From Sulfolobales archaeon (GTDB lineage Archaea; Thermoproteota; Thermoprotei_A; Sulfolobales; NBVN01): a stretch of DNA of 64,000 nucleotides. The stretch's first letter is position 1. Each line of letters begins with the position of its first letter. The notes under the pieces were generated by a model. That model searched no databases. It was not told the origin of the DNA and was given only the letters and a program-made list of their open reading frames with translations. A program made the translations under genes and the position numbers. Location: assembly GCA_038841535.1 (NCBI GenBank), contig JAWBTQ010000002.1:32001-96000 (forward strand). The letters run 5' to 3'. This document shows positions 17,345 to 22,318 of the stretch, piece after piece.

Positions 17345-18311
17345 CATTCGAGTAGTGCACATAGCTGGCTACGCAACGGTTCAAGATCTGGGTAGAAGGG
17401 GGTATAGAGCTATAGGAGTCCCAGTCTCAGGAGCTCTTGACAGACTGTCCGCAGTATACGCTAACGCTCTAGTTGGCAACAAGCCGGGGGCTGCGGTAAT
17501 CGAGGTATCCGGAACCATGACGTTAGGTCTCCAAGGGGATGCCATAATGTCCGTTACCGGGGGCTATCCAAAGGTGTTTCTAGACAACGTGGAGGTAGAG
17601 CCCTGGACGCCTCTCTACTGCCGCCGGGGCAGTACTCTTCGTATATACCCGACTGGAGCTGGGCGTGTTCACTACGTAGCCATATCAGGCGGAGTTGTCT
17701 GTGAGGAAGTCCTGGGAAGTATGTCTACCTACACTAGGGGTGCTATGGGGTGCTTAGGCAGACCTCTAAAGCCCGGAGATATCTTAGATGTAGGTTCAGC
17801 TGATCCAGTCGAGGTATGGGAGAGAGTATCCGACCTAAGACCTCCCGAACAGCTGGTGAGTAGGTATGCTAAACCTGAGGCATCTCTGACTCTGAGGGCT
17901 ACCGCAGGTATTCATATGCACCTCTTAGAGGATGCAGATCTACTGTTACGTAGCGAGTACTTAATTACTCCAGAGAGCGATAGAATGGGCTACAGGCTTG
18001 ATGGAGAACCCCTCTCTTCGGCTAGAAGACTCGGGAGACTCCCGTCTGTACCAACCGATAGAGGATATGTACAAGTACCCCCAGACGGTAAGCCCATAGT
18101 GCTGATGTCTGACTCTCAGACAACGGGCGGTTACGCAGTAGCTCTCCACGTAATCCCGCAGGACACCGACTTCTTAGCGCAACTAAACCCGGGTCAGAGG
18201 GCTAGATTCAAGCTCATCGACCTAAGCGAGGCAGAAGCTAGTGTGAGAAATTACCTCGAGGAGATCGATAAGCCCCTCCTCTACCGGAAGGAGCTGGAGT
18301 ACTGGGGCTAG
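17325..18311 (+). CDS. pxpC: 5-oxoprolinase subunit C
   Basis: TVQDLGR.GY..GVP.SGALD, SDRMGYRL, QVPPDGKPIVLM.D.QTTGGY. Confidence 0.95.
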   Translation: MVTTMRNIRVVHIAGYATVQDLGRRGYRAIGVPVSGALDRLSAVYANALVGNKPGAAVIEVSGTMTLGLQGDAIMSVTGGYPKVFLDNVEVEPWTPLYCRRGSTLRIYPTGAGRVHYVAISGGVVCEEVLGSMSTYTRGAMGCLGRPLKPGDILDVGSADPVEVWERVSDLRPPEQLVSRYAKPEASLTLRATAGIHMHLLEDADLLLRSEYLITPESDRMGYRLDGEPLSSARRLGRLPSVPTDRGYVQVPPDGKPIVLMSDSQTTGGYAVALHVIPQDTDFLAQLNPGQRARFKLIDLSEAEASVRNYLEEIDKPLLYRKELEYWG

Positions 18312-18454
18312 CTCACTCGCTGCGGTATCCGGCTCTCTCACGATGTTTTAATACTGTAAAATCCGGAGGTATTCAGTAATCAGCCCAAAGAAGCTTTATC
18401 GCTTTCGTTAAAATAATGGTGCTGTGCGGCGTGCGCGCCGGTATCAGTAAGATC

Positions 18455-18930
18455 AATGTACATCCAGTGAAGAAGGTTGTGATAGTGCCTCGTTATGCTA
18501 TGAGTGGTGGAACGTCGATAGCTCTAAATGCCGTTGAGATAATAATGAACCCTGATGCGGTTTTGGACCTCTAGATCCCCAGCTTCAGGTAAGCAACGCA
18601 ATATCCCCGGCTCCCAGTTTGATAAGGGTAGCCAAGATAAAGAGTAGTGCGGCTAGCGATCACACAACGTCTTAGCGGACGTAGCCGAGAAGGCGATCAG
18701 GGAGGTTCAGGAGCTCATTGTTCAACTCCTCGAGGATAAGTTAGGTAGAGAAGGCTACTGAAGTAGCTTGCAACCTGACGGAGGGCTACTATATCCATGA
18801 TTACCCGATCACCGTTGGGGAGATTTAGAAACTAGGTCTAAACGTCAGGACGGAGGCACTACGAGAGTCATACGAATTGATGGAGCTATACCCGTAGGCA
18901 CTTCAACAGAGACCTGGCGTCGATACCTAC
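18455..18930 (+). pseudogene. Frameshifted SDH-family ClpP-fold serine proteinase pseudogene (C-terminal half)
   Basis: Across frameshifts: HPVKKVVIVPRYAMSGGTSIAL..EIIM.PDAVL/PLDPQL...LADVAEKAIREVQE...EGYYIHDYPITV...ELMELYP. Internal stops; absent from the ORF track. Confidence 0.85.
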
Positions 18931-19029
18931 AGCGACCACATGTTCCTTACTATGAGCGTGGTCCAGCAAGAGAATAGGCCTATGAGTGCTCAGCATCAGT
19001 TTAGACCAAGCCCTGGATTATAGTCAGAA

Positions 19030-19260
19030 CGTACTCGTTTTTGGTTAATCGTTTCCCGCTCTAGGTTTTTGTAGGTTTTCCTAGGGTGGGTTGTGCCTCC
19101 TACCCTGCGGTTCACTGTGGCTACCAACCACTCTACGCAGGTGTCATGGGCACCTTTCGAGCCCAACGGCACGGGGCTCACATCTAGCTCTACCTCTAGG
19201 TGTCTCGAAGTACCTCTCATCATCGTGAAGAAATCCCACAAAAACATTTATAAACCTAAC
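19030..19260 (-). mobile_element. Internally deleted tnpB mini-element: TATA box, start codons and structured 3' end
   Basis: TTTATAAA (19247-19254), ATGATG about 24 bp downstream, then LDVSPVPLGSKGAHD..VEWLVAT resembling crenarchaeal TnpB tails. Three stems and an A/C-rich tail follow. Confidence 0.6.
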
Positions 19261-19289
19261 ACACTAAAACAGTTGCCAACCCTATGGAG

Positions 19290-19400
19290 TTAGGAGGAGT
19301 CCTTAAGATTTAGACAAAGCTTCTTAAATCCGTCAATGAAAACTACGAGAAGTTTATGAACATGCTTGTGGGTCTGACGTTCCATAGGACTGTCGTAACT
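19290..19400 (+). pseudogene. Possible decayed tnpB fragment (RuvC-II region)
   Basis: Frameshifted VL(E)DLDK / LLKSVNENYEKFMNMLVGLTFHR resembles the TnpB 'VLEDL.KL..SVN....F...L....YR.L' segment. Confidence 0.4.
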
Positions 19401-19709
19401 TAGATAACTAAGGAGCTAGAGAATTGCGCTGGTTATGTAGCCCAACACGACTATTTAGGGTTTCATATCTCATGGCACTAGTTGAAGCAGAATCCTCTGC
19501 CACCAGCATTACTAAAACGTACAGGCTTTCTCTGCTATTTTGCCTACAGGAGCTACACTCGAGATATGGGACGTCCATGGTACTCTGTACGTGCTCGGGC
19601 TCGATGAGAACTAGAGCGGAATGCGAAGAAGCAAAACGAGACTCCAATGTCGTCCCACACAAAGCTATATGATAGCTTACCCCTAAGGCTTGAACTCGCT
19701 ACTCTAGCT

Positions 19710-19880
19710 ACTGGGGTTCCATCACAGTCTAAAGCCCGACCTTTCGAAGCATGAAGGGGGTCGGACTGAACCATTTCCGGTCATAGACCCCTTGAGTTAA
19801 CCTAGCTCAAGTCTCGGGGGCTTAGAGAAACCGATGAGCAGTTTAAAGCCTACAAAGCACGTAAAAAGTACGCAGTCACG
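19710..19880 (+). ncRNA. Structured element, candidate omegaRNA-like tnpB right end
   Basis: Stems CCGACCTTTC/GAAGGGGGTCGG (19736-19764) and CTTGAGTTA/TAGCTCAAG (19791-19811) with G-U pairs on the plus strand; A-rich tail ending TCAC at 19879. Confidence 0.4.
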
Positions 19881-20014
19881 CCAAAGCGTGTAAAGGCCTC
19901 GAAGAGAAGTGGAGCTCAGGGACCAGAGACTTAGCCAACCCTCTCTAAACATCGCATGTCTTACACTAGGTACATCAGGAAGGCCGTTGACACGAGTCTT
20001 GAGAATCAGTGGTA

Positions 20015-22318
20015 TCAAACGTACGGAGTGCCGTACCTCCCCTCGAGGGGTTTTAGGAATACCGCTGGTCTTCCATCGATGGTCTGCTTTAGTACGTAAG
20101 CAGCCTTTCTTCTAGACAAGACTCTGTTGTTATTTCCGCAGTAAGGACTGAAAACACATTTCGGGCATCCATCGTCGCAATCGCATCTACTAACGATCGA
20201 GTAGGCTACGTCAACAGCTTTCTCGAATCTTGAGTAAAGTAGCTTAGCCAAACCACTGCCACCCATGTCCGCATCGTAGAAGACTATGTCGCCACTTGGG
20301 TAGCTAACTCCACCCATGTCGCCGAGACCAGCGCCGCACACAACTCTCGTAGCCGATATAATTGCGTGCTCAATGGCGTGGTAAGCTTCTGCCATGCCCT
20401 CAAACCCCAGCTCGTCAAACTCCTCGAACTTCGTTAAGACGGCTTTAGTAGGGTACCTGAACGCTATAGGCTTACCGTAGTGTTGTGTTTCTATGATACC
20501 TCCGCTGAATAAGTCTTTAGCTACATATCCCCCAACCATCATCTCCAGCTCTACGTGTGCGTAGGCAAGCTTAACGCCGAGCTCGGAGTCTCTCGTAGCT
20601 GTAACTTCGAAATTCGAGACGTCGACGGTGTAAAGGGGCCTAGTATAGAACTCCAGTGCATCATCTGTTCTCTCGAGATAGGCCCTCAGCTTACTTAGGT
20701 CTAGTTCTACCGTTCTATAGGGTCTACCGAGGTATAAGTATAGAGAACCGGGGTATAGCTCCAGTAGAGCTCTAGGGAGCTCCCTCTCAGCTATCTCTTG
20801 GTCTGTATCCACATCTACCAACTTGACTACGGGGCCGGGAGACCTTATCCCTTCCCTTAGGGACAGGTACCTCCTAGCCTCACTAAACTGCGGGAATACT
20901 ATCTCCCCACGGACTCTTAGTAAGCCCTCGGAGAGGAGGTCTCCTATGACAGATTTCCACACCTGAGGGAGGTCACCTTCTCTGGCTCTACCTTGCTGGA
21001 GGAGAAAAGCTATTAAGTGAGTCTTTACAACCTCCTCGTTTTGAGGCTCGATGGTGCTCGGTGGAATGTCCTGGTCGAAGAACTTCTCCGGGTTCCTAGC
21101 ATAGTAGGAGTCTACAGGGTCGTCGCTCAGTATCGTCACTATGTACCCCTTCCTTCTCCTTCCAGCTCTACCTGCTCTCTGGAGATACTTAGCATACGAC
21201 GGTGGAGGTGCCACGAGAACAACTGCGTCGAGACTCCCTATGTCTATTCCGAGCTCTAGAGTCGGCGTCGAGACTACTCCCTGTATTCTGCCGTCCCTAA
21301 GGTCGCTCTCAACCTTCCTCCTTATTTCTGCCGGTATCCCGGCTCTGTGGACTAGGACCTCAATACCGTACCTACTGCGCAAGATGTTCGTGAGCATTTC
21401 GGCTAGCTGCTGGCTATCTACGAAGACTATGAACCTTAGACCCCTGCTAGCTAAGAACTTAGATACGAACACCGTAATACTCCACCTACTCAGAAGTCCC
21501 GAAAAGATGAGAGCGTGTACTGCCGTTCCCCTTCTCATGGCTGTTCCCCTTACTTCGATGAACTCCTCCCCAAACAACGACTCCGCGAACTCCTTTGGGT
21601 TCCCTATAGTGGCAGAAGAGGCTATTACTTGTGGTGTTGACCCACGGCACATCTTGACTCTCTGAAACAGGTGGTGCATGTGGGAGCCAAGTACCCCTTC
21701 GTAAATATGGAGCTCGTCGAATACCATAATGTTAGCAGAAGCAACAAACTTCCTTACGTGAGGGCTGTATACTAGCCCAACGTGGACCATGTCCGGGTTC
21801 GTGATTACGATTGTTGTGGGTCTGGAGGCTATACGTGCTCTAACACTCCTCGGGGTATCACCGTCGTAAACACTTACATTAGTAACGCCGAATACCATGT
21901 AGTCGGAGAAGCGTTTGAGCTGGTCTCGGGCTAGGGCTTTAGTTGGATAAAATACTAGTGCTCTAGGGTTAGGTCCCACTTCTTCTGATGCCTTCTTGAG
22001 TAGTGGGAGGAAGAATGCCTCGGTCTTACCAGTTCCAGTTCCCGCAGATATTACCACGTTCCGACCGTTCAAGGTGTGCTTATATGCTTCAAACTGAAAC
22101 TTGTACAGCCTACGAATACCGCGCTTTAGTAATATTCTAACGACAGCCTCTGAGAGACCTAAGTCTTGCACTGCCGGACCGGGTTCAGGCTCACCGTACT
22201 CCTCGATTCTCTCGTAAACAACTCTAGCACCCACGTCTCCGTAGTTCTCCTCGAGAGCTCTGTCGAGTTCCTCTATGAGATGATCCCTATGCAACTCTGT
22301 TCTATCCCGTTTACACAC
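20015..22318 (-). CDS. DEAD/DEAH-box helicase with C-terminal DUF1998 (MrfA/SftH/Hrq1-like)
   Basis: GTGTGKT, YPTKALARDQ, DELH, SAT, LELGIDIG, QRAGRAGR, CDCDDGCPKC..SPYCGNNN. Confidence 0.9.
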   Translation of the reverse strand: MCKRDRTELHRDHLIEELDRALEENYGDVGARVVYERIEEYGEPEPGPAVQDLGLSEAVVRILLKRGIRRLYKFQFEAYKHTLNGRNVVISAGTGTGKTEAFFLPLLKKASEEVGPNPRALVFYPTKALARDQLKRFSDYMVFGVTNVSVYDGDTPRSVRARIASRPTTIVITNPDMVHVGLVYSPHVRKFVASANIMVFDELHIYEGVLGSHMHHLFQRVKMCRGSTPQVIASSATIGNPKEFAESLFGEEFIEVRGTAMRRGTAVHALIFSGLLSRWSITVFVSKFLASRGLRFIVFVDSQQLAEMLTNILRSRYGIEVLVHRAGIPAEIRRKVESDLRDGRIQGVVSTPTLELGIDIGSLDAVVLVAPPPSYAKYLQRAGRAGRRRKGYIVTILSDDPVDSYYARNPEKFFDQDIPPSTIEPQNEEVVKTHLIAFLLQQGRAREGDLPQVWKSVIGDLLSEGLLRVRGEIVFPQFSEARRYLSLREGIRSPGPVVKLVDVDTDQEIAERELPRALLELYPGSLYLYLGRPYRTVELDLSKLRAYLERTDDALEFYTRPLYTVDVSNFEVTATRDSELGVKLAYAHVELEMMVGGYVAKDLFSGGIIETQHYGKPIAFRYPTKAVLTKFEEFDELGFEGMAEAYHAIEHAIISATRVVCGAGLGDMGGVSYPSGDIVFYDADMGGSGLAKLLYSRFEKAVDVAYSIVSRCDCDDGCPKCVFSPYCGNNNRVLSRRKAAYVLKQTIDGRPAVFLKPLEGRYGTPYV

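Follow-up and report, generated by a model that had tools for sequence, protein, structure and literature searches.

A repeat of ca. 234 bp, one copy of which occupies positions 19049-19283 (minus strand) of the 64-kb stretch of DNA analysed here (hereafter, the window), is almost certainly a gene-less, non-autonomous derivative of an IS607-family transposon. It has kept ca. 95 nt of the left end and ca. 139 nt of the right end of its parent, the latter consisting of the last ca. 45 codons of tnpB together with the right terminus. The reading that we favour, and consider reasonably probable as a whole, is that this gene-less IS607 derivative is moved in trans and supplies omega RNA to a cognate TnpB; the part of it by which the copies would act as working guide RNAs is held more tentatively, at slightly less than an even chance.

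Extent and make-up of the element

Searches covered the genome to which the window belongs (G000; 1.56 Mb in 40 contigs, 84% complete) and 40 relatives. In G000 the archaeal models score best for both SSU and LSU rRNA, so that the genome is archaeal. The limits of the repeat were set by BLAST against its own genome, by alignment of the copies together with their flanks, and by the loose ends of contigs. They are confirmed by contigs from four hot-spring metagenome runs, which diverge from the window at 19050 and at 19283/19284, with loose ends that are many and mutually different. An earlier reading made from the sequence alone (the sequence-only reading) had described a promoter-preceded tnpB mini-element at 19030-19260 that was almost pure omega RNA scaffold. 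The element is indeed located there, but its true limits, 19283 to 19049, are wider, and the description as almost pure scaffold was overstated, ca. 95 of the 234 nt being left end. The individual signals were correctly recognized: TTTATAAA lies at 19254-19247 (minus strand), ATGATG at 19223-19218, its first A 24 nt past the last A of the box, and the tnpB-type tail begins at 19187, where tblastn aligns TnpB residues 379-424. The A/C-rich tail is also present and corresponds to the loop and 3' arm of a terminal hairpin plus the right end of the transposon. The features of the element are the following:

19049..19283, minus: whole non-autonomous element, a MITE-like internal-deletion derivative of an IS607-family transposon, ca. 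234 bp
19280..19283, minus: left junction AGGG; predicted crossover GG at 19282-19281, the A at 19283 being probably target DNA
19247..19254, minus: TTTATAAA, TATA-box-like, inherited from the region upstream of the parent's tnpA; putative promoter
19230..19245, minus: subterminal inverted repeat, left arm; 88% complementary to 19065-19080 over 16 nt; likely TnpA-binding motif
19188..19223, minus: what is left of the tnpA start, as far as the deletion junction (ATGATG at 19223-19218, then GAGAGGTACT..., the latter also found at the parent's tnpA start)
19061..19187, minus: last ca. 45 tnpB codons, no longer a gene (tblastn to TnpB residues 379-411 and 413-424; DNA 90% identical to the parent's 3' end)
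19159..19179, minus: scaffold helix 1, GAGCCC/GGGCTC; 94.6% of cells paired, 3 of 6 pairs changed on both sides
19093..19153, minus: long-range helix, 19153-19149 with 19097-19093; 97.3% of cells paired, compensatory change in 0 of 5 pairs
19142-19136 with 19109-19103, minus: helix CCUGCG/CGCAGG, inside the long-range helix; 84.9% of cells paired, compensatory change in 4 of 7 pairs
19131-19126 with 19122-19117, minus: hairpin inside the long-range helix; 90.4% of cells paired, compensatory change in 3 of 6 pairs
19055..19090, minus: terminal hairpin, 19090-19080 with 19065-19055; 82.7% of cells paired, compensatory change in 6 of 11 pairs
19049..19053, minus: AACGA, 3' half of the pseudoknot and right terminus; 91.6% of cells paired, compensatory change in 3 of 5 pairs; crossover dinucleotide GA, not GG
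19029..19048, minus: guide segment predicted from TnpB biology, the flank directly 3' of the right end

Two other identities, a box C/D methylation guide RNA (with AUGAUGA as the C box) or a small protein gene (an 83-aa ORF at 18996-19247), are hardly credible. There is a weak match to Rfam sR42 (12.2 bits vs a gathering score of 38, E = 9), but no CUGA D box follows the C box within that match and no Rfam gathering score is reached. Over the whole window, in fact, the Rfam search rendered nothing at gathering score, and between 18200 and 20200 only chance-level matches (sR42, 12 bits; RNase MRP, 9 bits; CRISPR repeat, 18 bits vs a gathering score of 44). As for a protein, the ORF is present in the window copy, but its start lies inside the TATA box, it has no Pfam match, and its frame is not kept in other copies, which show stops and frameshifts, open frames of 42-76 aa and, in three of them, a 1-nt insertion. 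The sub-threshold sR42 score, the missing CUGA and the unkept ORF contradict both identities. ARAGORN detected no tRNA in the window.

The element lies in a 1.7-kb stretch devoid of long ORFs, between a plus-strand gene ending at 18311 and a minus-strand helicase gene ending at 20015. This spacer (18311-20015) of ca. 1.7 kb measures ca. 110 bp in the relatives G001 and G008 and ca. 830 bp in G002, so that the element sits in lineage-specific extra DNA. No clean empty site for the window locus was found in G001 or G008, whose short intergenic region shares nothing with the 1.7-kb spacer, and no joint skipping the whole element was found in the contigs of the four DNA runs. Two contig joints in those runs skip 148-160 nt inside the element and are read as shorter variants of the family. 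The spacer also carries, on the plus strand, a pseudogene fragment (18460-18978) related, at 71% identity, to the 3' 175 codons of an ORF of 290 aa that is intact in G005 (L075 1154-2026), with an open piece of only 52 aa (18416-18574).

The intact parent and the deletion

A deletion that removed nearly all of tnpB and left a promoter and the scaffold had been postulated, together with the search for a full-length parent having the same 5' and 3' ends. Such a parent exists in the same genome: the intact transposon G000:C18:1980-3946 (1.97 kb), which encodes a 210-aa TnpA and an overlapping 423-aa TnpB, matches the 5' 56 nt of the element at 86% and its 3' 142 nt at 90%. The domain matches of the 210-aa ORF (Resolvase, 7.1e-26; HTH_17, 7e-14) are those of a serine recombinase, and the 423-aa ORF matches Cas12f1-like_TNB (5.9e-17) and, weakly, RuvC_1. 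In PDB alignments, its GVDVN and HDRD motifs stand opposite the RuvC aspartates of Cas12f, and both CxxC pairs are present. On sequence grounds, this gene arrangement is of the IS607 type, and the parent of the mini-element belongs to the IS607 family.

The C-terminus of the parent TnpB reads ...LDVSPVPLGSKGAHDSCVEWSVTTVNRRAEAQPALGKPTKT, from which, with tblastn, it follows that the window element carries the last ca. 45 tnpB codons; the 83-aa ORF at 18996-19247 reads LDVSPVPLGSKGAHDTCVEWLVATVNRR, and the intact 423-aa TnpB at G000:C18 ends LDVSPVPLGSKGAHDSCVEWSVTTVNRR... Upstream of the junction, GAGAGGTACT matches the start of the parent's tnpA (TTG GAG AGG TAC T). Since the tnpA start is found on one side of the junction and the tnpB tail on the other, the deletion took both genes. 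The postulated event is thus upheld as regards the near-complete loss of tnpB and the retention of the scaffold and left end, but tnpA, encoding the serine recombinase, was lost as well, and the box is that of the putative tnpA/left-end promoter. No TnpB domain was found anywhere on the contig of the window.

The retained 3' part begins only ca. 8 nt upstream of helix 1, the first helix supported by covariation, and at least three junction types (the main one, the L064 type and the L066 type) all retain the region from helix 1 onward. More miniature subfamilies were observed among L064 and L007, among L066, L067 and L069, and among L061, L062 and G000:C7:69399-69620; their types are elements of ca. 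205 bp with another left end, elements of ca. 265 bp without the TTTATAAA box, and elements with the same two ends and another interior. G000 also contains a frameshifted tnpB (C1:40324-41376) whose product is 76-81% identical to the parent protein, with a solo scaffold (C1:41843-41994) ca. 1.4 kb away in opposite orientation.

Copies and spread

The copy count rendered 17 copies with the same internal deletion junction in three genomes of the same genus: 4 in G000, 10 in G002 and 3 in G007. The junction is kept in 16 of the 17, the remaining copy having a further deletion of 13 nt. The deleted form itself has multiplied, as one junction at many loci in three species. Matches in other genomes are mostly to a conserved piece of ca. 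45 nt, and 25 of the 41 genomes (G000 included) give a match at E <= 0.001. In the peak bin, the contig depth added up over the element is 24 to 125x that of the flanks, a figure to which all organisms contribute and which does not give a copy number.

Within G000, the segment 19050-19283 recurs at C1:223147-223377 with 93% identity and at C26:1396-1631 with 92% identity; with copies only this alike, recent movement is not indicated. Further relatives of the element in this genome are a 262-bp variant (C1:128480-128741) and a degenerate form (C7:69399-69620). The 262-bp variant lies 5-6 nt downstream of a 99-nt tRNA gene (L004 1768-1866, minus strand, equal to G000:C1:128747-128845; Rfam tRNA, 46.2 bits), which was missed by ARAGORN and therefore probably contains an intron. 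The flanks of a G002 copy (L055, G002:C4:246201-246833) map to G000:C1:141150-141349 and C1:128280-128484 in opposite relative orientation, which indicates an inversion of 12.6 kb, one of whose breakpoints coincides exactly with the left end of the variant copy C1:128480-128741.

The G002 copy on C14 and the G007 copy on C12 share their flanks (92.5% identity over 625 nt), so that this insertion predates the split of those species. In the orthologous insertion compared between G002 (L051) and G007 (L058), the left part is 92.0% and the scaffold 86.8% identical, with 96.0% and 98.9% identity in the flanks, and the differences fall in blocks resembling exchange with other copies. These figures bear on the main alternative, to which we assign a minor though appreciable chance: that the element is an inert relic, namely a MITE or deletion remnant now in decay after a single episode of spread, with an inherited fold that is unused, an incidental TATA box and no functional guide RNA. 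A scaffold more diverged than its flanks (86.8% vs 96-99%) is what such decay would give, but the sequence flanking the orthologous site is possibly coding, and hence slow-evolving, and exchange between copies can raise divergence. It also fits a relic that no close TnpB was found in G002 or G007: G002 has 10 copies, yet the TnpB of its nearest full element is only 40% identical, and no full element was found in G007 (80% complete). When the parent TnpB was used to find related loci in genome contigs, 26 pattern matches were obtained, of which none was confirmed. The intergenic stretch that holds the window copy, ca. 1.65 kb longer than in two relatives and carrying a pseudogene fragment as well, points in the same direction. 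A relic is less easily reconciled with the several junction types that all retain the whole scaffold, nor with the abundance and pairing of the scaffolds described below.

Termini, junctions and subterminal repeat

Junctions were tabulated for 21 copies, made up of three variants and the parent in addition to the 17. On the left they read A(19) G(19) G(20) G(19) and on the right C(20) G(19) G(20) T(19), the number of copies being given in brackets, so that the junctions are of the form AGG/G...C/GG/T, without duplication, and the sequence beyond them is unrelated between copies. Both of the candidate empty sites examined (in G000, for two G002 copies) consist of a single AGG followed by the right flank, which fits insertion at AGG/Y with no duplication. 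IS607 has been described to carry GG at both termini and at the target, without target duplication (PMC6188088; bioRxiv 10.1101/2023.11.20.567912), and the sequences of our termini and predicted target sites agree with that behaviour.

A subterminal inverted repeat, AGGTTTTTGTAGGATTT vs AAAACCTACAAAAACCT, is 17 nt long and 94% complementary in the parent, and 16 nt long and 88% complementary in the window copy, where its right arm sits in the loop and 3' arm of the terminal hairpin (19055..19090). By analogy with the footprints on IS1535, this repeat is likely to be the site of TnpA. In IS1535, TnpA binds only two motifs at the right end (PMC6188088); since the repeat arm lies here within ca. 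35 nt of the end, a further ca. 95 nt are left unexplained by transposase binding.

The element had also been put forward as a MITE candidate. It has no transposase gene, it shares its ends with an autonomous element, and one deleted form is found at multiple loci; the terminal inverted repeats and flanking direct repeats of classical MITEs are absent from it. With neither these repeats nor a duplication, the term MITE applies to it only loosely, for an element that is miniature and non-autonomous.

The right crossover dinucleotide of the window copy (19050-19049) is GA and not GG. The base concerned, 19049, is A in this copy and G in 33 of the 37 other rows of the alignment, and it is the sole departure of the window copy from the >=80% consensus; its scaffold matches the family consensus. 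With GA as its right dinucleotide, this copy may no longer be excisable, a point that would suit a decaying relic.

A conserved fold in the retained 3' part

The fold was studied in an alignment of 38 non-identical homologous 3' regions, namely the 17 MITE copies, the parent, tnpB-linked ends from five other genomes and other gene-less ends; matches shorter than 95 nt and loci duplicating another id were left out. The resulting structure has five helices and a pseudoknot, with 88.9% of 1505 cells paired vs 37-43% when partners were slid by 1-3 columns, a contrast that is inflated because the structure was drawn from the same 38 sequences. Compensatory change on both sides was found in 19 of the 40 pairs, vs 5-12 in the slid controls, and the covariation score was 0.210, vs 0.056-0.100 for the slid controls, a value reached by none of 500 shuffles.

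Three stems had been proposed from the window sequence. Two of them, GAGCCC (19179-19174) with GGGCTC (19164-19159) and CCTGCG (19141-19136) with CGCAGG (19109-19104), are exact and show compensatory changes across the 38 sequences. The middle one, AGGTG (19155-19151) with CACCT (19143-19139), exists in the window copy but finds no support in the family, column 63 (19142) being A in a few rows only; in its place, GGTGC (19153-19149) has its covarying partner in GCACC at 19097-19093. In the pseudoknot, CCGUU from the helix 1 loop (19169-19165) is paired with AACGG, the last bases of the element (19053-19049), and in one relative UCGUC with GACGA constitutes a double compensation. In the window copy, all 32 canonical consensus pairs are kept in its own minimum-energy fold, including all nested helices of the long-range domain. 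The end of the fold coincides exactly with the boundary of the transposon: in the parent and in the window copy alike, the scaffold spans the tnpB 3' end and the right end, and the flanks past CGGT vary. Sliding identity along tnpB, compared with distant homologues, rises over the last ca. 140 nt, and also over the zinc-finger/RuvC-III region, and does not cleanly mark the start of the scaffold.

Several features of the fold would also be expected of a sequence that is no longer used. Among the MITE copies, conservation is the same for paired (0.872) as for unpaired (0.875) columns of the scaffold, and the scaffold as a whole exceeds the left end only slightly (0.873 vs 0.81). Moreover, two internal pairs of the terminal hairpin are A.C and C.A mismatches in most MITE copies (12 and 16 of the 17, respectively); the C.A mismatch, however, is also present in the intact parent. 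Against decay, the 17 gene-less copies taken alone still have 90.6% of cells paired, vs 36-43% in slid controls, and 7 compensatory pairs, vs 0-4.

A covariance model built on the nested helices was searched in G000; at E <= 0.01 it rendered 42 matches, of which 36 also reach E <= 1e-4. Only two of these 36 scaffolds, those of the intact parent and of one degenerate copy, are preceded by a tnpB body, and the other 34 are gene-less; the persistence of 34 gene-less scaffolds in a 1.56-Mb genome is a further argument against an inert relic. Many of the 36 matches score only 20-90 bits and probably represent other miniature subfamilies. The TnpB zinc-ribbon domain has 13 matches in G000.

The strand of the RNA, inferred from the orientation of tnpB, is probably the one sense to tnpB. 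Wobble counts for this RNA strand amount to 114 G.U vs 109 A.C cells (88.9% vs 88.6% paired), which favours neither strand, and the fold z-score of 19030-19260 is better for the plus strand (-3.25) than for the minus strand (-1.44).

The promoter-like box and the predicted guide

The box TTTATAAA occurs once in the 64-kb window vs 0.9 occurrences expected, so that the box alone is no evidence, and its weight comes from being shared with the parent, in which the identical 8-mer is found (L017 609-616), and with other copies. Among the 17 copies it reads TTTATAAA in five, TTTATATA in one, TTTAAA in six and something weaker in five; the 8-mer is thus intact in only 5 of the 17 and degraded in 11, a pattern that could be due to decay.

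The TATA box lies ca. 60 nt upstream of the structured RNA module, and gene-less scaffolds far outnumber nucleases. Both observations would be compatible with a domesticated regulatory small RNA that base-pairs with host mRNAs or DNA, with or without TnpB, as transposon-derived antisense RNAs and TldR-type repressors do. We regard this as very improbable: the locus is not conserved in relatives, the flanks differ in every copy, as expected of passive insertion, and the predicted guide flank has no second match of at least 16 nt in its own genome (84% complete), the best being of 14 nt (E 0.079). A guide flank that matches nothing else in the genome fits homing, and not regulation.

The supply of guide RNA itself, in our favoured reading, has to be weighed against the near-equal G.U and A.C counts, the better z-score of the plus strand, the equal conservation of paired and unpaired columns, the 86.8% identity of the scaffold at the orthologous insertion, the intact TATA box in just 5 of 17 copies and the 40% identity of the nearest TnpB in G002, all of which count against it or limit it.

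Comparison with known elements

A gene-less carrier of omega RNA is a known kind of element, already proposed in print for PATE, and the one described here is a well-documented example. PATE elements "often encode omega RNAs", to be acted on in trans by the TnpB of other elements (Meers et al. 2023, PMC10055086). Like PATE (IS200/IS605), our element is gene-less, keeps its ends and a predicted omega RNA, would need transposase and TnpB from genes located elsewhere, and is present in many copies per genome. Unlike in PATE, which is of the Y1/HUH type with palindromic hairpin ends, the parent is of the IS607 type, with a serine recombinase, double-stranded DNA and a GG crossover; in addition, the host is an archaeon and the left end brings a TATA box ca. 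60 nt upstream of the scaffold. Membership of PATE was considered and discarded, the parent transposase being a serine recombinase and the junctions of the GG type.

With IS607 elements that carry TnpB (bioRxiv 10.1101/2023.11.20.567912; Chen et al. 2018, PMC6188088), it shares the GG termini, the lack of duplication, the subterminal repeats, a predicted omega RNA that spans the tnpB 3' end and the right end, and the guide-side pseudoknot; in the published IS607 omega RNA, the 3' half of the pseudoknot (PK-1/PK-2) adjoins the guide (bioRxiv 10.1101/2023.11.20.567912). An engineered mini-IS607 lacking both genes was excised by TnpA acting in trans (Zedaveinyte et al. 2023, bioRxiv 10.1101/2023.11.20.567912). 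Compared with the IS607 elements of those reports, the mini-element is natural and amplified, the base upstream at the target is A (AGG) vs the clostridial TGGG, and there is no group I intron. The Sulfolobus MITEs SMN1 and SM3A (PMC3718332) are, likewise, short ORF-less derivatives of archaeal insertion sequences that are mobilised in trans. They differ in deriving from ISC1733 and ISC1058, in having terminal inverted repeats and flanking direct repeats, and in the lack of any described guide-RNA module. In the literature searched, no archaeal MITE was found to be described that derives from IS607 and carries an omega RNA. The differences from the PATE elements and from the engineered mini-IS607 are the natural amplified element, the serine-recombinase parent in an archaeon, and the left end, with its putative promoter, fused beside the scaffold.

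Proposed mode of action and implications

In the reading that we favour, an internal deletion removed tnpA and almost all of tnpB from an IS607-family transposon of a hot-spring archaeon, and the shortened form then multiplied. Its copies would be moved in trans by TnpA, which would bind at the subterminal repeats, with strand exchange taking place at the GG dinucleotides. From the captured tnpA TATA box, transcription may begin near 19223 and continue past the scaffold into the flank, giving an omega RNA with a guide from 19048 onward. The sole intact cognate TnpB (G000:C18) would load this omega RNA and, on loss of the element, cut the empty site (...CCATAGG + TTAACC...), the copy being restored by recombination.

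A bolder version, which we consider unlikely, starts from the 34 gene-less scaffolds vs one intact cognate tnpB and takes the gene-less copies as working, self-promoted guide-RNA genes that parasitise a single TnpB. Each cassette would then be driven by the captured tnpA promoter and not by processing of the tnpB mRNA, the unit of selection would be the RNA cassette and not the transposon genes, and copies that cannot be excised, such as the window copy with its GA terminus, would be free for co-option as host guide RNAs.

If the transcript exists and loads TnpB, the element would be a natural minimal guide-RNA gene of a thermophilic archaeal TnpB, made up of a promoter, a leader of ca. 35 nt, a 131-nt scaffold and a guide, and it would define the limits of the scaffold and the likely TAM (...AGG) of that nuclease. 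It would also mean that this lineage, with gene-less scaffolds in a ratio of 34:1 to the intact gene, is suited to tests of two questions, the maintenance of non-autonomous elements by a TnpB acting in trans and the co-option of such cassettes.
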